Assembly (NCBI GenBank): GCA_041649135.1
Contig: JBAZNQ010000001.1
Span: 227,037-291,036, forward strand
DNA from: Patescibacteria group bacterium
GTDB taxonomy: Bacteria; Patescibacteriota; Kazan-3B-28
Length of the DNA stretch: 64,000 nucleotides
Reading direction: 5' to 3'
A program made the translations under genes and the position numbers. This document shows positions 2,806 through 58,065 of the stretch, piece after piece. Positions within the stretch are counted from its first letter, which is position 1. Every line of letters starts with the position of its first letter. The notes under the pieces were generated by a model that had not been told where the DNA came from, did not search any database, and worked only from the letters and a program-made list of their open reading frames with translations.

Positions 2806-3498
2806 CTAGCGACTATTTTTCTTACGCCACTCCTCCACCTTCCCGTGATGCCCCGACAACAAAACTTTCGGTACCTTGTGCCCTTCAAACACCTCTGGTC
2901 GAGTGTATTGCGGATGTTCCAAATTATTTCCTACTGAAAAACTTTCATACTTAGCTGATTCCTCATTGTGTAATACATCCGGTAATAATCTCGCCACCGA
3001 CTCCATTACCGTCAGCGCGCCCAATTCTCCACCCATCAATACGAAATCACCTACTGATAATTTTTCATCAACATAATATTTAATCCTTTCATCTACTCCC
3101 TCGTATCTCCCACACACAAACACCAACTCGTCATAGCTAGATAATCTCTTCACTTCTTTTTGAGTAAACCTCTTTCCTCTTGGATCTAATAAAATAATCC
3201 GCACCTTTTTACCGTCATTCCGAACTTGTTTCGGAATCTCCCCCCTTTTTAACTTTTCACTTTTAACTTTTAACCGTAATGACCGCAACGCCGCGACAAG
3301 CGGCGGCAAGGTCATTACTAGTCCCGCCCCTCCGCCATACGGCATATCATCCACCGTTTGATGCCTATCTTTCGTAAACTTCCTTGGACTAATAGTTTTA
3401 AGCTGAACTTGTTTCTTCTTTAAAGCTCGGGACAAAATCCCTTCCTTAAAATAATCCTCGATCAACTGCGGAAAAATTGTGATAACTGTAAAACGCAT
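2806..3498 (-). CDS. trmD: tRNA (guanine37-N1)-methyltransferase
   Basis: TrmD SPOUT motifs (MRFTVITIFPQL…DMPYGGGAG…). Sits in the rpsP operon context. Confidence 0.9.
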   Translation of the reverse strand: MRFTVITIFPQLIEDYFKEGILSRALKKKQVQLKTISPRKFTKDRHQTVDDMPYGGGAGLVMTLPPLVAALRSLRLKVKSEKLKRGEIPKQVRNDGKKVRIILLDPRGKRFTQKEVKRLSSYDELVFVCGRYEGVDERIKYYVDEKLSVGDFVLMGGELGALTVMESVARLLPDVLHNEESAKYESFSVGNNLEHPQYTRPEVFEGHKVPKVLLSGHHGKVEEWRKKNSR

Positions 3499-3688
3499 AG
3501 CTAAAGAATACCAGCCTTATCGCCCCAGAGCCAGTTTTCTCCCACATCGTCATTGCGAGAAATAAAATGACGAAGCAATCTGCCCATTTTACCATCCTCC
3601 CTCCTCTGCCGCTTTATGAGACGGCCGTCTTCTGAAGCGGCATATGATTTTTTCTGATCACGCCTGTTTGATTGATTCTTTATCAAAA

Positions 3689-5254: not shown

Positions 5255-5376
5255 TTTTTTGCCTCCAGATTTGGTAAATTGATAGTGATAGATTCTGAAC
5301 CTAGTTCAGAATGACGCAGTATCCACAAGATTCTTCCATAACTATTCACTCTTAACTGTTAACCATTAACTACCCC

Positions 5377-7452: not shown

Positions 7453-7511
7453 CGGGCGGATCGAGGATGACTTCATTTATTCATTATTTACACGATCGTG
7501 TAAATAATGAG

Positions 7512-8895: not shown

Positions 8896-9057
8896 GTCAT
8901 CCTCGAACCGATAGCGATAGCGCATCGATATCGAGGACCCAGACAGAAACAAAAACATTTTTCTTTTTTCTTTCTAGATTCCCGTTTTCCTCCCAAGGCG
9001 GACAGGTCACGGGAATGACGACGGGGAGACTAGATCCTGAACTAAATTCAGGATGAC
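8896..9057. repeat. Composite bipartite palindromic element (GTC-ATCCTCGA hairpin, CCAGACAGAAAC spacer, ATTCCCG hairpin, GAC, then an ATCCTGAA hairpin)
   Basis: Member of the element family catalogued in the findings. GTCAT/ATGAC termini and internal perfect stems. Confidence 0.7.
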
Positions 9058-9083
9058 AATAAATAGGTAAATTTTGTTATTTA

Positions 9084-11125: not shown

Positions 11126-11220
11126 CCTCGAGCCGACAGTATTAGCGAGTCGACATCGGGGATCCAGACAGAAACAAAAACATTTTTCTTTTCTGGATTC
11201 CCGCCTTCGCGGGAATGACG
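11121..11220. repeat. Composite bipartite palindromic element (GTC-ATCCTCGA hairpin, CCAGACAGAAAC…TTTCTGG spacer, ATTCCCGC hairpin, GAC)
   Basis: Near-identical architecture to 8896-9057, 44453-44535 and 52646-52740. Confidence 0.7.
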
Positions 11221-28424: not shown

Positions 28425-28458
28425 CACGTTGAGTTATGCGGCCGCATAACTCAACGTG
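28425..28458. repeat. 34-bp perfect palindrome CACGTTGAGTTATGCGGCCGCATAACTCAACGTG
   Basis: Exact self-complementarity. Partner copy at 29057-29091. Confidence 0.8.
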
Positions 28459-28506
28459 TTCGCTTATTCCAATTTTTCTTACCAAAACTACTGCCAAATA
28501 ACCAAA

Positions 28507-29037
28507 TTACAGTACCTTTTTGCCTTCTACAATATCAACATATCTGGCGATATCGTAAAGGTTGATTAGAAGTTCAATCTCCCGCTGACATGGGTATTGG
28601 TGTCGCCAGACACTATGCTGAATCTTCTTGAAACCCAACTGAACTAACTGACCGCGAAATACCTCCCTTGCCAACTTTTTTCGTTCTGGGATATCAAACA
28701 TCACAAAGCGATACAACCCATCCCATGGATCTTGTCGGGGAATTTGTATTTCGTCAGCCCGATATTCCAACACTCTCTGTTTGCCAGCTTTGGTTAAATA
28801 AAGTTTGGTCTTGCCGTTTTGTTCACTCGTTGCTATCAACCCGTCATCTTCGAGCTGTTGAAGTTTTCGCTTAATCACCGCCGGCTCTACACTACGACGA
28901 CGATACTGTTTCGCAAACGGCTTTAGTAACGCCGCTAAGCCAGGTGCTACTGCTATCAATACCAACACTCCGCCTGCCAATGCAATGCCGAGTAGAATAT
29001 CTCTCGCCAAGTTTAGCCTTTCCGCTCTCTCCCCCAT
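28507..29037 (-). CDS. N-terminal TM plus winged-helix domain plus PaaX-C/Cas2-VapD-like fold protein
   Basis: wHTH KRKLQQLEDDGLI. Motif WDGLYRFVMFDIPERKKLAREVFRGQLVQLGFKKIQHSVW resembles PaaX C-terminal and Cas2-like proteins. Confidence 0.45.
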   Translation of the reverse strand: MGERAERLNLARDILLGIALAGGVLVLIAVAPGLAALLKPFAKQYRRRSVEPAVIKRKLQQLEDDGLIATSEQNGKTKLYLTKAGKQRVLEYRADEIQIPRQDPWDGLYRFVMFDIPERKKLAREVFRGQLVQLGFKKIQHSVWRHQYPCQREIELLINLYDIARYVDIVEGKKVL

Positions 29038-29056
29038 ATACTCATTCTATCATTAG

Positions 29057-29091
29057 CACGTTGAGTTAAAGCGGCCGCATAACTCAACGTG
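29057..29091. repeat. 35-bp near-perfect palindrome CACGTTGAGTTAAAGCGGCCGCATAACTCAACGTG
   Basis: One indel relative to the 28425-28458 copy. Sits about 20 nt upstream of the PaaX-like gene start. Confidence 0.8.
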
Positions 29092-29117: not shown

Positions 29118-30716
29118 TTAATTTCGACTCATTTTGGGACCGCTTGAGGTATCCTCTACCGCAAAACCTAATCTACTAATTTGTGTGCGAAGCTGGTCTG
29201 CCTTTTTCCAATTCTTAGCCTGACGCGCTTTTTCCCGCTCTGCTACCAGTTTTTTCACCTCCACGGGAATCGTTAATGGCTTATCATCTTTCAGCCCCAG
29301 CCCCAACACTCTATCGAAATCCAGTAGGGTGGTCTGCTTATCAGCCAATGACTTTTTTGATTTCACTAACTCCCAAACTACCGCCATCGCCTTTGACATA
29401 TTCAAATCATCATTCAGAGCCGACCCGAACCGTTTTTTGTATGTTGCGTCCACTTTCCCCTTGCCATTCTCCTGCTGTACAGCAGGACGGGAATCCATTT
29501 TTGTTTTTCCTGTCTGGATCCCCGATCGAGTCGGGGATGACGAGGAAGAGATGCTGAATACAGCTCGAAGTTTATTCAAGGAATTGCTAGCACCTTCCAA
29601 TGCCTGCAACGAGAACACAAGGTTACTACGATAATGGCTACCAATCGCCAAGTAACGAAAAGCAATTGGATCAACTTCATTTTTTACTAAATCAGCCAGA
29701 TTAATAACATTGCCTTTACTTTTTGACATCTTAATCATACCCATTTCTTCACCGCAAACTCCGCACTTGCCACAATAAACCAAAGTACCATCTGGTAGTC
29801 TCTTTCTAACTAGCTTTCTCTTGCTGATAGATGTTTCATGCCCCTTGCTACATACCATTTTATTGCTTACCCAGCCAATAAAACTCAATGGATCAATTAC
29901 CATAAAGGCATTATGGAACCAATATTTTGCCAACGGCTTATTGTATGCCGCTTCGCTTTGCGCAATTTCATTATTGTGATGTGTCGCAATATGATCCTCT
30001 CCGCCAGTATGAATATCAAATGGTTGACCTAATTCTTTAGTAGAAATTGCCGAACATTCAATATGCCAGCCCGGATACCCCACCCCCCAAGGAGATTTCC
30101 ACTCCTGTTGCCGTTTTTCTGTTCCAGAAAACTTCCACAGCGCAAAATCGGTCTGCCTCTTCTTTTCCTTGCTGTGCGCCACCCTCGCTCTGCTCGAAGA
30201 CCCCCCAAAGCCTTGGCGAAGGGGGGCCAGCTTGCCGTATCCCTTAAATTTTGCGGTATCAAAATAAATCCCATCAGTAGTTTTGTATGTGTATCCCTTT
30301 TTCTCTAATTTTTTAATTAAAGCTATTTGTTCCTTGATGTACTTACTCGCCCATGCAAATTTCACCGGCATTTCAATATTCAACGCTTTCAAATCTTTCA
30401 TAAACTGCTCGGCATAAAACTTGGTAATTTCCTTCGCGGTTTTGTGCTCTTTCTTTGCTTCTCGTTCTACCTTGTCTTCGCCCGTATCCGCATCAGACGT
30501 TAAATGCCCAACATCCGTAATATTCATTACCTGTTTCACTTTGTAGCCGTTGTATTCCAAAGTTCGGCGCAAAATATCTTCCGCCAAATATGCTCGTAGA
30601 TTACCGATATGCGCATACTGATACACTGTTGGTCCGCAGGTGTACATCGAAACCTGGCCTTTCTTCAAAGGCCTAAATTCCTGCTTCTTCCGACCTAGTG
30701 TATTGAATAGCTTCAT
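29118..30716 (-). CDS. cysS: Cysteine--tRNA ligase (532 aa) carrying an in-frame palindromic-element insertion in the linker before the anticodon-binding domain
   Basis: HIGN, KMSKS (KMSKSKGN) and a zinc-binding Cys. A ~25-aa extra segment is encoded at 29455-29541 by a GTCATCCCCGA…palindromic element. Confidence 0.9.
   Translation of the reverse strand: MKLFNTLGRKKQEFRPLKKGQVSMYTCGPTVYQYAHIGNLRAYLAEDILRRTLEYNGYKVKQVMNITDVGHLTSDADTGEDKVEREAKKEHKTAKEITKFYAEQFMKDLKALNIEMPVKFAWASKYIKEQIALIKKLEKKGYTYKTTDGIYFDTAKFKGYGKLAPLRQGFGGSSSRARVAHSKEKKRQTDFALWKFSGTEKRQQEWKSPWGVGYPGWHIECSAISTKELGQPFDIHTGGEDHIATHHNNEIAQSEAAYNKPLAKYWFHNAFMVIDPLSFIGWVSNKMVCSKGHETSISKRKLVRKRLPDGTLVYCGKCGVCGEEMGMIKMSKSKGNVINLADLVKNEVDPIAFRYLAIGSHYRSNLVFSLQALEGASNSLNKLRAVFSISSSSSPTRSGIQTGKTKMDSRPAVQQENGKGKVDATYKKRFGSALNDDLNMSKAMAVVWELVKSKKSLADKQTTLLDFDRVLGLGLKDDKPLTIPVEVKKLVAEREKARQAKNWKKADQLRTQISRLGFAVEDTSSGPKMSRN
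29455..29541 (-). repeat. Bipartite palindromic element inserted in frame within cysS
   Basis: Minus-strand sense: GTCATCCCCGA-ctcgat-CGGGGAT, CCAGACAGGAAAAACAAAAATGG, ATTCCCGTCC… This is the same architecture as the intergenic copies. Confidence 0.65.
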
Positions 30717-30724
30717 ATTTTTTC

Positions 30725-30853
30725 TTTCTGGATTCCCGCCTTCGCGGGAATGACGAGAAGGGAACGACTTAATGTATTAAATAGTTTTAGTATTTTTCGC
30801 CTGGTCATCCTGAATTAATTTCAGGATCTAGATTCTGAAACAAGTTCAGAATG
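30725..30853. repeat. Two palindromic elements (GATTCCCGCcttcGCGGGAATGAC, and a family-C element with ATCCTGAA and ATTCTGAA hairpins)
   Basis: Family termini and architecture. Confidence 0.6.
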
Positions 30854-30895
30854 ATAAATAATATGTATTAAGCTATTTTCCCCCTCTGGGTGTAT

Positions 30896-31801: not shown

Positions 31802-31835
31802 CATAGACAGAACTACTCCTTCACGATTTCTGTTC

Positions 31836-31925
31836 GTCATTCTGGCTTGCCTGCCCGCCTTGGGAGGGACCAGAATCTTATCGAATATCTATACGATTCT
31901 GGATGCGCTTCGCTTACCAGAATGA
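31836..31925. repeat. Family-B bipartite palindromic element (two ATTCTGG/CCAGAAT hairpins between GTC and GAC)
   Basis: Near-identical to 52529-52630. Confidence 0.7.
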
Positions 31926-31939
31926 CGGCTACCACAGGA

Positions 31940-31994
31940 CTTCACTCTTCACTCTTCACTCTTCACTCTTCACTCTTCACTCTTCACTCTTCAC
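31940..31994. repeat. Heptamer microsatellite (TCACTCT) x7
   Basis: Perfect tandem copies. Partial extra copies lie at 32029-32050. Confidence 0.85.
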
Positions 31995-32032
31995 TTCGTA
32001 GATCATCCCGAAGCCTTGTGCGAAGGGTGACT

Positions 32033-33034: not shown

Positions 33035-33122
33035 AGAAAATAAGTTAAAAGTTAACAGTTAAAAGTGAATAATTATGGTAAAAATCAAATTCCTCAATTG
33101 TTAACTGTTCACTGTTCACTAT

Positions 33123-33881
33123 TCACTGTTCACTAAGAGTTATCTTATTAATCACGATTGGTGTCTTCGGACGGCTAACCTCTCCTTGACCGTTATCTTC
33201 TACTGGCATTGCGGCAATCTTGTCCACCACATCCATTCCCTCCACTACCTTTCCAAAGATGACATAACTTTTTGGCAAATCTGTGGCATCCTGATGCACG
33301 ATAAAGAACTGACTACCGTTGGTATTCGCCCCTGAATTTGCCATTGCTACCGTTCCACGGCTATATTCACCAACTATTTTTTCATCATCAAACTGATATC
33401 CCGGTCCGCCAGTTCCGTCATCACTCGGATCATCGTCTTTAGAATTCGGATCGCCAGTCTGGATCATGAAATCTTTAATTACCCGATGAAACTTAATGCC
33501 GTCATAAAAATTCCTCTTCGCCAGCAACACGAAACTGGCCGCTGTCTTAGGAGTATTATCTGTATCTAACTCGATCTTGATATTACCCTGACTGGTTTCT
33601 AGTGTCGCGAATTTATTCTGGGCCAATTCCTCTTTTGTAATTTCTCCGAACGGACCCTTCACTTTTCCCGCCAAACCGTTCCAATCAACCTGTTGAAACC
33701 CCCAAATTCCGGCCCAAACCAACGCTCCCAATACGGCTAACCCGCCAAAACCCAAACCAATTCGTAACATCCATTTTCGCCATGGCGCCCATTCCAAACT
33801 CGCCCGCGCCCGCAACTCTTGCCGGATATTTTTTTCTTCAGCTAATTTTCGTGCTTTTCTTTCGCGTGATCTTCTAGACAT
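33123..33881 (-). CDS. ppiB: Cyclophilin-type peptidyl-prolyl cis-trans isomerase with an N-terminal membrane anchor
   Basis: Cyclophilin motifs (FHRVIKDFMIQTGD…MANSG…GSQFFI). Confidence 0.85.
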   Translation of the reverse strand: MSRRSRERKARKLAEEKNIRQELRARASLEWAPWRKWMLRIGLGFGGLAVLGALVWAGIWGFQQVDWNGLAGKVKGPFGEITKEELAQNKFATLETSQGNIKIELDTDNTPKTAASFVLLAKRNFYDGIKFHRVIKDFMIQTGDPNSKDDDPSDDGTGGPGYQFDDEKIVGEYSRGTVAMANSGANTNGSQFFIVHQDATDLPKSYVIFGKVVEGMDVVDKIAAMPVEDNGQGEVSRPKTPIVINKITLSEQ

Positions 33882-44297: not shown

Positions 44298-44452
44298 AAA
44301 TGATAAAAAATCTAAATTCTAATCTCTAAATCCCAAACAAATTCCAAATCCTCCAGAAAATCCTAAACTCGAAATTCTAAATCCTAAACAAATTCTAAAT
44401 TCTAAATTCTAATGCTTCAAACGTTTTCTCTGTCATTCCCGCTCTCTTCTTC

Positions 44453-44535
44453 GTCATTCCCGCGTAGGCGGGAATCCAGACAGAAACAGAAAAAAGTTTT
44501 TGTTTGTTTTGCTTTCTGGATCCTCCGGTCAAGCC
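44453..44535. repeat. Composite bipartite palindromic element (GTC-ATTCCCGC hairpin, CCAGACAGAAAC…TTTCTGG spacer, ATCCTCCGG hairpin, GAC)
   Basis: Twin of 52646-52740. A partial extra GTCATTCCCGC lies at 44432. Confidence 0.7.
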
Positions 44536-48541: not shown

Positions 48542-48972
48542 GGCAAGTCTCCTTGGGCTTAGTTGCCCATCAGAAATTTTGCCTCTGCCTCGAGGCCCGA
48601 GTTAGAAACCTAGCTTACATCACGCTAGATTTGAACATATCCCGACCGAAGTCGAAACCAGCTCCCAACCAGATGGCGAGGACTGCTACCAAAGCTATTT
48701 TTCAAGCTCCCCAAAGACCCCCAAATACTACCCAAAAAGCCGCCCCCAGTCAATAGAATTTCGCTCCCAGCTCGCCCCGTAGTGAAATCGTCGCCAGTTT
48801 GCCTAATCTAGCAAATCAAACATTTCTACTGCTGTTACTATTACTGGAGTCAAATTTCATCCCTGACCAAATATTGAACGGCCGTTCAATATTTGGCACC
48901 CCTCTATCTCTACCATCGAAGGAGGAATATATTGCCTGCCCGCGGACGCGGGACGCGGCCAGGGAGCCAATA

Positions 48973-49263
48973 AAATTAGCGCAGGCGAAGGCGTTGTTTG
49001 ACCCATCCCCAATTTTGTTTTTCGCGTAGCCCGTCGTCTGTGTCCGCCATAGCCTTGGCGATGGTGGAAGCTCGTAGAGCGAAGTCGGGTCATTCTGAAC
49101 CCTGGCTGCATCCCGCACCCGCGGGCAAACTGGTTTCAGGGTCTCTAGCCAATTTTGTTTCTATTCGTCATTCTGAACTAGTTTCAGAATCTAGATGCTG
49201 AACTAAATTCAGCATGACAAAACTGGTAATGGGAAGTTCTCCGAGAACGAAGAAAGCTAATTT
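48973..49263. repeat. MITE-like element copy 2 (AAATTAGC … GCTAATTT), expanded to 291 bp by nested palindromic-element insertions (e.g. family C at 49167-49218)
   Basis: The ends match copy 1. The interior contains GTCATTCTGAAC-type hairpins. Confidence 0.6.
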
Positions 49264-49563
49264 TATTAGGCGAACAATCGAAACGACCCCAAAGGAAGCC
49301 TTAGGCTCTGGTGGGCGACTTTGGTTACTTTTCTTTAAGTCGGAAAACAACCATTGCTAAAGCGCAATTCGGCACTTCAAAACCAATGAAAGAAAAAACT
49401 TATGCCGCTTCAGAAGACGGCCGTCTTCTGAAGCGGCAGGATCATAAGGTTCTGGACTCTCTCAACCAAGGCGGGCGGGCAAGCCCGAGGATGACACAAA
49501 AAAAGAATCAAGAATGACAAAAGCAAGAGACAAAAATGAAAAAATGATAGGGAAGTTTACTGT

Positions 49564-52493: not shown

Positions 52494-52528
52494 TAAGCCT
52501 TCCTTGTTTAGTACCTGAATCTCGCACC

Positions 52529-52740
52529 GTCATTCTGGCTTGCCTGCCCGCCTTGGGAGGGACCAGAATCTTATTAAAAACATCTATACGATTCTGGATG
52601 CGGTCGCCATGACGACCTTACCAGAATGACGAGACACTCTTCATCGTCATTCCCGCGTAGGCGGGAATCCAGACAGAAACAGAAAAAGATTTATTGTTTA
52701 TTGTTCTTTTCTGGATCCCCGGGTCAAGCCCGAGGATGAC
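52529..52740. repeat. Family-B element (52529-52630) directly followed by a composite ATTCCCGC / ATCCCCGGG-hairpin element (52646-52740)
   Basis: Near-identical to the 31836-31925 and 44453-44535 copies. Confidence 0.7.
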
Positions 52741-57839: not shown

Positions 57840-57856
57840 TATCTCCCTGCCTCCTT

Positions 57857-57881
57857 GTCATTCCCGCGCAGGCGGGAATCC
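57857..57881. repeat. Single-hairpin palindromic element GTCATTCCCGCGcaggCGGGAATCC upstream of murF
   Basis: Family terminus and stem. Confidence 0.55.
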
Positions 57882-58065
57882 ATTTTCCCCCTCCCACCCG
57901 TTCGTCTATAAGTCTATCTGTCTATAAGTCCATTCGTCTACCCGTCTATTAGTCTACCCAAAAATCCGCCCCCAGCCTAGTATTTCATTGAATCTCCGCC
58001 AATCCAAACAATCTCCACCCATATCTTTTTGGTTAGATTGGATTAAATTGGATAGATTGGTTAGA

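Follow-up and report, generated by a model that had tools for sequence, protein, structure and literature searches.

In phage lambda the cI repressor gene lies between OL and OR, its own operators, whose cooperation through looping tunes autoregulation and which also control the lytic promoters. In the REP/REPIN-RAYT systems a gene is flanked by its cognate short palindromes, with a distinct repeat sequence for each gene lineage, and in CRISPR an insert is bracketed by direct repeats that are ~30 bp long and partly palindromic. Single-gene units bounded by imperfect palindromic sites are further known in the form of integron attC cassettes and IMEX at dif, and the lox, FRT and dif sites share a layout of arms flanking a 6-8-bp centre. 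The Patescibacteria are typified by tiny genomes with few recognisable regulators, and to our knowledge almost nothing is known about gene control in them. PaaX, the phenylacetyl-CoA-responsive regulator of Escherichia coli and Pseudomonas (PDB 8a39, 3l09), combines a winged helix with a following PaaX_M domain; its operator is TGATTC-N27-GAATCA, spanning 39 bp, and it represses its own Px promoter by steric hindrance of RNA polymerase (PMC9493321).

The locus considered here, from a window of 64 kb (the whole stretch of DNA that was analysed), contains a gene for a small PaaX-like protein (WC553_01340, from a Patescibacteria MAG whose relatives belong to candidate division Kazan) that is bracketed by two copies of a long palindrome (Table 1). 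The downstream copy has 17-nt arms with zero loop and lies 48 nt past the stop codon in a convergent intergenic region. The upstream copy lies 19 nt ahead of the ATG, at about -20 to -54 relative to it, and its inner arms are unequal by one indel-type change, with AA in one against T in the other, such that the ancestral TTAAAG is kept on one side and TTATG is found on the other. These distances agree with the preliminary description, which had placed the sites 50 nt downstream and, with one indel, 20 nt upstream of a 176-aa gene; its characterization of both 34/35-bp sites as perfect palindromes applies to the downstream one alone.

Table 1. Positions in the window of the gene, its two flanking sites and the candidate promoter element
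Feature	Position	Strand	Description and basis
Downstream site	28425-28458		Perfect 34-bp palindrome, CACGTTGAGTTAT / GCGGCCGC / ATAACTCAACGTG = CACGTTGAGTTATGCGGCCGCATAACTCAACGTG
Gene	28507-29037	minus	176-aa truncated PaaX-like protein; ORF, PF20803, AF2/Foldseek
-10-like element	29044-29052	minus	TG-extended, TGATAGAAT; read from sequence; ends 6 nt before ATG
Upstream site	29057-29091		35-bp imperfect palindrome copy, CACGTTGAGTTAAAGCGGCCGCATAACTCAACGTG

The 12-nt arm occurs four times in the window, always inside these two sites, against an expectation of 0.25, and the 34-mer palindrome was not encountered in any of 100 shuffles; a chance origin of the pair is therefore excluded. The central GCGGCCGC is likewise present only twice in the window, both times in these palindromes. 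The preliminary description had held that a palindrome abundant genome-wide and unlinked to this gene family would speak against its interpretation, and within the 64 kb there are just two copies, both flanking the gene. Beyond the palindromes the flanks share 1 nt (5') and 2 nt (3'), no target-site duplication was found around the palindrome-gene-palindrome unit, and no paralogs of the gene are present elsewhere in the window. Searches with the exact 34-mer in a genome-contig collection and with the arm-gap-arm pattern in a metagenome-contig collection gave no matches, the source MAG lying outside both collections.

Sequence profile analysis with Pfam recovered the PaaX_M domain (PF20803) at residues 103-174 of the protein with strong significance (E 9.6e-18, 64.5 bits against a cut-off of 24), along with weak winged-helix and Cas2 matches and none to the PaaX N-terminal family. 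The PaaX equivalog model TIGR02277 reached 37.1 bits, far under its cut-off of 264.55, and the Cas2 profiles also remained under their cut-offs (PF09827, 15.1 against 23.8; TIGR01573, 21.3 against 24.5), with PADLOC Cas2 models matching residues 109-155 only, at E ~1e-5. The protein nevertheless contains a Cas2-like beta1 motif, hhhhFDIPE, with its conserved Asp (FDIPE), and a QxSVW motif. An AF2 model from an alignment of 88 relatives (pLDDT 84.4) retrieved E. coli PaaX (8a39) as the best PDB match in Foldseek (E 3.1e-5, 173 columns), with F93 and AspA, both DNA-binding winged-helix proteins, next in rank and then Cas2; the PadR winged helix was also recovered. A sequence search of the PDB with the family profile gave no match, and PaaX was reached by fold comparison alone. 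A PHROGs search returned a weak, generic 'transcriptional regulator' match and nothing else. The predicted domain order is a hydrophobic N-terminus, a probable winged helix and a Cas2-like PaaX_M domain. The protein ends at residue 176, directly after PaaX_M, with no Pfam match to the PaaX_C ligand-binding domain, and this absence implies that it does not sense PA-CoA.

The first 25 residues are strongly hydrophobic (Kyte-Doolittle 2.6) and resemble a transmembrane segment, as they do in 60 of the 88 relatives; the stretch is missing in some family members, e.g. the 156-aa protein of locus L098. The AF2 model places it as the helix 1-strand-helix 2 of a PaaX-type winged helix, with residues 21-50 at pLDDT 59-70, and this fold of the hydrophobic N-terminal half of the domain may be wrong. 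The stretch may thus be a true membrane helix or a part of the winged helix; in the former case the locus would be anchored to the membrane by its own product. Of the combination of TM segment, wHTH and PaaX/Cas2-like fold originally proposed for this protein, the latter two are supported by PF20803, AF2 and Foldseek, whereas the TM-like hydropathy of the first competes with its folding into the winged helix. Comparisons of the gene with its orthologs gave dN/dS values of 0.05-0.09 at a dS of 1.3-2.3, i.e. strong purifying selection with saturated synonymous sites. The neighboring genes are cysS, those for DUF5652 and SdpI-like proteins, and other housekeeping genes, with no paa genes nearby. 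No transposase or recombinase is encoded within or beside the unit, the wHTH-PaaX_M protein being its sole ORF.

The resemblance to Cas2 comprises the ferredoxin-like fold, the two motifs and the sub-threshold profile and Foldseek matches. Unlike Cas2, the protein is a winged-helix fusion, the insert bracketed by the repeats is its own gene, and neither cas1 nor a CRISPR array was found in the neighborhoods of the 80 loci examined; the 64-kb window also has no CRISPR-array-like repeat family.

Is the bracketing a property of this one gene or of its family? A profile search of 1.84 billion representative proteins (E <= 1e-30) indicated that the family comprises 1,411 clusters at 50% identity. 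A scan using one genome per species found 168 relatives, of which 80 loci were analyzed; all 80 are from Patescibacteria, frequently with several paralogs per genome, and a separate scan of viral contigs found no relatives. Comparison of these loci reveals a repeat shared between the two 120-nt flanks for 69 of the 80 family genes, against 2 of 263 other ORFs of the same loci. One of the latter two proved to be a simple AT repeat, and the other belongs to a gene for a 23S rRNA IVS protein, which has an inverted repeat of its own; both were set aside. The pairing of palindromes with genes of this kind is a property of the family. The reverse test gave a comparable picture, with 75 of the 99 long zero-loop palindromes in 539 kb falling within 200 nt of a family gene. 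Additional full sites are few (~5 in 500 kb of sequence flanking 73 family genes), and all are within 2.5 kb of the gene. Bracketing recurs in orthologs at 60-82% protein identity: in those at 82, 79 and 67% a ~36-bp palindrome occupies both positions, in one case in a different neighborhood, with drifted arms (e.g. TACGCTGAGTTAAAGCG..., TACGTCCAGTTAAAGCG... and TACGCCCAGTTCGGACG...). No conserved gene neighbors were found over the 80 loci beyond local synteny, the ORF clusters being those of housekeeping genes only.

These observations bear on the reading of the palindromes as a generic REP-like intergenic repeat that lies beside the gene by coincidence. The window is certainly rich in such elements, having many hairpin repeat families and a further three long palindromes with zero loop, which are centred on CGATCG or CGGCCG and distant from any family gene. 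However, the sequence under study is confined to the two flanks, and the arrangement recurs in orthologs and across the family and not around control genes, making a coincidental repeat extremely improbable. The REP/RAYT systems also combine a gene with cognate palindromic flanks of a sequence particular to each lineage, but here the HUH/Y1 transposase domain is absent, the copies are mostly direct, and they are not dispersed (2 in 64 kb). The three orphan palindromes, at 7481, 48867 and 49403, have no homologs among the fetched loci and may be scars or unrelated hairpins. The pair at 48867/49403 was also considered as a decayed cassette and rejected, as there is no protein similarity between the two positions.

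Across the family the sites display a combination of variable arms and restricted centres. The arms of paralogs within one genome are wholly different, while those of orthologs are kept between different genera, e.g. TCCAATTTGGTACTATAGTACCAAATTGGA in five genomes. The centres are nearly always CTATAG (28 counted), CGATCG (16), CGGCCG (13, the type found in the window) or CGACCG (17 together with CGGTCG), with CTATCG/CGATAG seen 4 times. In the clade of the window gene the 18-nt half-site has conserved ACG (positions 2-4), AGT(T) (8-11) and CGG (16-18) blocks, and positions 5-7 and 12 vary freely; judged by sequence, this is the pattern expected of contact blocks with spacers. Between orthologs whose synonymous sites are saturated the palindromes still align, and the surrounding flanks do not; the palindromes are conserved beyond neutral decay.

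The position of the upstream copy provides a further clue. No Shine-Dalgarno sequence precedes the ATG of the window gene, whose start appears to be leaderless, and the TG-extended -10-like element is conserved in orthologs at the same place (TAGAAT/TAAGAT/TAGGAT); a generic sigma-70 scan, which requires a -35 element, did not call it. Across the family a -10 hexamer with at least 5/6 matches is found 5-45 nt 3' of the dyad at 56 of 73 upstream copies as against 29 of 73 downstream copies, and one with the TG extension at 34 of 73 as against 8 of 73. The box mostly ends 5-10 nt short of the ATG, so that the upstream site would cover the -35/spacer region of a leaderless promoter, which is a position suited to a repressor. 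Hence, the overlap of the upstream copy with a promoter/RBS region, as first described, persists for the promoter, and the RBS drops out with a messenger that looks leaderless. For the downstream copy, a role as operator of the following gene in the window was rejected, the next gene being convergent.

Given the location of the upstream copies just before the -10 box and leaderless start, and the match in size to the PaaX operator, we consider it moderately probable that the palindromes are cognate sites of the protein encoded between them, the whole being one self-contained, self-repressing unit. The dimeric operators for autoregulation that the preliminary description had envisaged are consistent with this reading, as are the pairing of genes with sites and the paralog-specific arms. 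The parallels to PaaX extend to a predicted winged helix ahead of PaaX_M, half-sites set far apart in a long dyad (an operator of 39 bp in PaaX, predicted sites of 34-36 bp here) and, by inference from sequence in the present case, repression of the own promoter. The family differs from PaaX in the lack of a ligand domain and of paa genes nearby, the hydrophobic N-terminus, the occurrence of sites to either side of the gene, which are full palindromes and have a conserved centre, and, in the loci sampled, its restriction to Patescibacteria.

In mechanistic terms, the protein might be seen as a PaaX-type regulator cut down to its winged-helix and Cas2-like dimerisation domains. The outer blocks of the arms (ACG and AGTT in the clade of the window gene) would be occupied by the two winged helices of a dimer, with the conserved 6-bp centre under the dyad either contacted by the Cas2-like dimer or serving as a required bendable step. 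Occupancy of the upstream site would then block RNA polymerase, resulting in negative autoregulation like that by PaaX at Px. The downstream site might be a second operator, probably looping with the first or acting as a roadblock to convergent or read-through transcription, and could double as the 3' hairpin of the transcript; its function under this model is a conjecture. A repressor gene between its own (here predicted) operators is reminiscent of lambda CI, from which the unit differs in the fold of the protein and in that looping is conjectural. Three features sit uneasily with operators of this kind: the sites are much longer and more perfectly symmetric (arms to 27 nt) than one dimer requires; a regulator with detectable sites only around its own gene lacks an obvious output; and the two copies of a locus differ in ways, described below, that a shared binder alone does not explain.

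Comparison of the four half-sites of each locus distinguishes two classes. In the symmetric class each copy is a near-perfect palindrome and the differences between the two affect both arms (46 positions). In the asymmetric class, mostly with a CGACCG centre, only the outer ~8 nt form inverted repeats and the copies are direct repeats of each other (69 positions). The rarest pattern (12 positions) is a mirror one, as in attL/attR, which is clean in L006 and L012, where the outer halves match each other and the inner halves match each other; seen only in these two loci, it was rejected as a general rule. The both-arm changes (46 against the 12 of the mirror pattern) need either selection on a hairpin or template-switch homogenisation of quasi-palindromes, a known mutational process.

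This raises the alternative that the sites function as RNA, namely as stem-loops that terminate or insulate cysS and the gene itself or stabilise 5'/3' ends, possibly bound by the RRM-like Cas2 domain, with the likeness of the two palindromes a by-product of duplication. In addition to the perfect symmetry and the compensated both-arm differences between the copies of one locus, this alternative can point to the downstream copy of the window, which in a simple scan is terminator-like on the minus strand, that of the gene (15 pairs, tail CTTAGTTTAA). T tracts (at least 6 T in 8 nt) also follow 15 of 73 downstream copies and 7 of 73 upstream ones, a roughly twofold difference, but as a fraction of all downstream copies they are few. 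In the raw counts, sense-strand mismatches were biased towards G.T (124, with 47 for A.C), which initially suggested tolerance of G.U pairing; the bias vanished once related loci received less weight (12.5 against 9.5, p 0.5; 15 against 7.6, p 0.2), and this strand-specific signal was rejected as evidence for an RNA hairpin. Moreover, the -10 box is 3' of the upstream palindrome, which therefore lies outside the mRNA of the gene, and the CGACCG-centre class pairs only in its outer 8 nt. No Rfam family was found at threshold, with a sub-threshold hairpin match to Spd-sr07 (30 against 55 bits). RNA hairpins also leave unexplained the arms kept across genera, the restricted centre and the bracketing of this family only, and as the primary role of the sites they appear very unlikely.

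Presence and absence of the unit in relatives, which the preliminary description had suggested checking, offers a different line of evidence. The locus L097, recovered by a metagenome scan with the clade half-site, shares synteny with L001 to either side (82-96% nucleotide identity). It has a solo palindrome (2815-2849) that aligns with both L001 palindromes, the intervening 634 bp being missing. Five further loci from more distant relatives (L110, L111, L112, L113 and L114) with the PPIase-YbaB-RecR-EamA-CysRS...DUF5671...SdpI synteny lack both the gene and the palindrome after cysS, and gene and palindromes therefore arrived together; in L115 a solo site, of another type, may be present. In a poorly resolved CysRS tree carriers and non-carriers are interleaved, with L097 as the sister of L001. 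Within the clade of the window gene 3 of about nine loci are inactivated, namely L097, L009, with a nonsense codon in the family gene, and L014, in which the 5' 350 bp are lost and a perfect downstream palindrome is kept. Therefore, the gene and its palindromes are acquired as a set, and recombination between the repeats can remove them again; no sign of a dedicated enzyme was seen. The retention of one repeat at the empty site fits such repeat-repeat recombination and not the excision of a transposon.

Further rearrangements are seen elsewhere in the family. A solo palindrome of the window type lies 30 nt beyond the CGATCG-type pair of another family member in L098, in an unrelated neighborhood, and one site type occurs in four different neighborhoods, two of them (L060 and L079) within one genome. 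In L089, a paralog from the L001 genome, there are four palindrome copies with duplicated flanks in the layout A-pal-B, A-pal...pal-B, with XRE and HicA genes between, and L090 has a 48-nt outer direct repeat.

All of this could be accommodated by a mobile or selfish cassette, in which the palindromes are primarily recombination or insertion sites rather than operators, and the protein or a host recombinase moves the ~0.65-kb unit. The 6-bp centre would then be the region of crossover or cleavage and the variable arms would provide element-specific recognition, a layout resembling that of lox, FRT and dif sites. Such a cassette would account for the exact replacement of the unit by a solo site, the patchy distribution, the solo, shared and duplicated sites listed above, the attL/attR-like halves of L006 and L012, the inactivated copies and the setting among unrelated housekeeping genes, and it would give a role to the Cas2-like motif with its conserved Asp and the Cas2 profile matches. 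Against it are the absence of a recombinase or transposase in or beside the unit, of a target-site duplication, of additional copies in 64 kb and of members on viral contigs, and the rarity of the mirror pattern (12 positions, as opposed to 69 direct and 46 symmetric). Further, direct repeats of 35 bp can give rise to a precise deletion without a dedicated enzyme, the gain could be ordinary horizontal transfer, and the strong purifying selection and the promoter built into the upstream site suit a regulator. We regard a primarily mobile element as unlikely. The terminal inverted repeats of a ~670-bp mobile cassette, offered earlier as the alternative to operators, fare similarly: the loss in L097, the empty loci and the solo site of L098 speak for a cassette, but the copies are mostly direct repeats, and neither a transposase nor a target-site duplication nor, in the 64 kb, additional copies were found. 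A more specific version, in which these are autonomous single-gene cassettes of Patescibacteria whose Cas2-like/winged-helix protein recognises its own ~35-bp direct repeats and joins in recombination, either as the recognition subunit or as a nuclease at the 6-bp centre, appears quite unlikely; if it were to hold, solo palindromes such as those at 7481, 48867 and 49403 would be scars. The integron attC cassettes and IMEX resemble the present units in being either precisely present or absent, in leaving a solo site and in having arms around a 6-bp centre, but here there is no tyrosine recombinase nearby, there are no arrays, and the unit has its own promoter and gene-specific sites.

The operator and cassette readings do not exclude each other, and the less probable mobile-cassette and RNA-hairpin roles are partly compatible with operators. 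In the self-repressing unit that we favor, recombination between the 34-36-bp direct repeats would delete the gene precisely and leave a solo palindrome, thereby making it a cassette that is subject to gain and loss.

Thus, the components of this system, i.e. a PaaX_M protein, a palindromic operator and autoregulation, are known, but self-bracketing throughout a family, a 6-bp centre common to its sites and gain and loss in the manner of a cassette appear not to have been described before; full-text literature searches yielded no paper in which PaaX and Patescibacteria are both mentioned. With each family gene flanked by its predicted DNA target, the family would furnish dozens of protein-site pairs with different arms and a common centre, a natural set from which the recognition code of a winged helix could be deciphered and orthogonal repressor-operator parts drawn. 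Being cleanly gained and lost, with solo sites as scars, the units may also serve as a tractable marker of genome flux in Patescibacteria. If the protein does join in recombination, the units would constitute mobile cassettes of a new type, based on a Cas2-like fold, and a Cas2-fold protein acting on repeat-insert-repeat units outside CRISPR would, if true, bear on the origin of Cas2 and of the CRISPR repeats.

The gene of the small PaaX-like protein, which combines a winged helix with a Cas2-like PaaX_M domain, and the near-identical palindromes on its flanks are found in several relatives in altered arrangements. In a 700-kb Kazan genome (locus L014, the same as L105) 81 codons are missing from the start of the family gene, and what remains of it is joined to the cysS end; here the upstream palindrome has been lost and the downstream one is still a perfect 34-mer. 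Two types of site meet in locus L098, where a 156-aa member of a different subfamily, devoid of the hydrophobic N-terminus, possesses its own palindrome pair (TGAACGATCGTTCA), and a solitary palindrome of the window type (GCACGTTGAGTTAAAGCGGCCGCTTATACTCAACGTA) lies 30 nt outside this pair, 3' of a penicillin-binding-protein gene.

Additional repeats are seen in three further relatives' loci. L089 carries a paralog from the genome that also contains locus L001, and its palindrome is present in four copies: the family gene is flanked by A-pal and pal-B halves, while one intact A-pal-B site is situated 1.1 kb upstream, with an XRE-family gene, a 74-aa ORF and a HicA toxin gene between the palindrome sites. 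In L090 the family gene and its two palindromes lie between the copies of a 48-nt direct repeat (92% identity), an arrangement reminiscent of the duplication or insertion of a larger segment. Tandem repeats with a spacing of about 94 nt occur upstream of the family gene in L024, each containing one half-site of the L024 palindrome (GTCAA(A/C)TTTGCGTCAC). Among the control genes, i.e. neighboring ORFs of the same loci, only two showed flank similarity, one of them being the L021 gene for a 23S rRNA intervening-sequence protein (PF05635), which lies between the arms of its own inverted repeat of about 25 nt.

The intergenic regions of the window are filled with short hairpin repeats that have a GC core and belong to several families, including two 47-nt copies that are 100% identical and 20.7 kb apart. 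Examples of such hairpins in the window are GTCATTCCCGCG..GGGAATCCAGA and CTAGATCCTGAAC..GTTCAGGATGAC. A REP-like copy of repeat family D14 coincides with an in-frame 26-aa insertion (SISSSSSPTRSGIQTGKTKMDSRPAV) in the CysRS encoded by the window; this is similar to the palindromic elements found in frame within genes of Rickettsia, and the cysS of L014 has an insert of the same kind. A second CysRS insertion of 51 aa, relative to a 448-aa relative, contains a C..C...CGKCGVCG motif that looks like a zinc ribbon.

Positions of genes, palindromes and repeats in the window and in relatives' loci
Feature	Locus	Positions	Details
Zero-loop perfect palindrome	window	7481-7510	centre CGATCG
Zero-loop perfect palindrome	window	48867-48896	centre CGGCCG
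Zero-loop perfect palindrome	window	49403-49438	centre CGGCCG; degenerate copy 3606-3652
cysS (CysRS gene)	window	29118-30716	minus strand
26-aa insertion	window	29478-29555	
D14 repeat copy	window	29501-29526	
51-aa insertion	window	29748-29900	
Short hairpin repeats, e.g.	window	11182-11220, 30717-30755, 44444-44499, 52637-52692, 57848-57903	
Short hairpin repeats, e.g.	window	5288-5317, 9030-9059, 30828-30857, 49191-49220	
47-nt hairpin repeat	window	31835-31881, 52528-52574	
Tandem heptamer repeat	window	31940-31995	(CTTCACT)n; degenerate copies 32031, 32704, 33093-33134
Truncation and fusion of family gene	L014	about 2990-3010	
156-aa member and sites	L098	1430-1464, 1505-2040	
Paralog and sites	L089	3632-5614	
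Direct repeat	L090	4831-4878, 5611-5658	
Tandem repeats	L024	2326-2880	
PF05635 gene	L021	2073-2435	

These three other long zero-loop perfect palindromes of the window have no family gene near them in the window, and no homologs of them were found among the fetched loci. They share the centre type of the family sites, with unrelated arms. They may be solo scars that mark where cassettes were lost, or may serve as targets for paralogs whose genes lie elsewhere; plain terminators are a third possibility.
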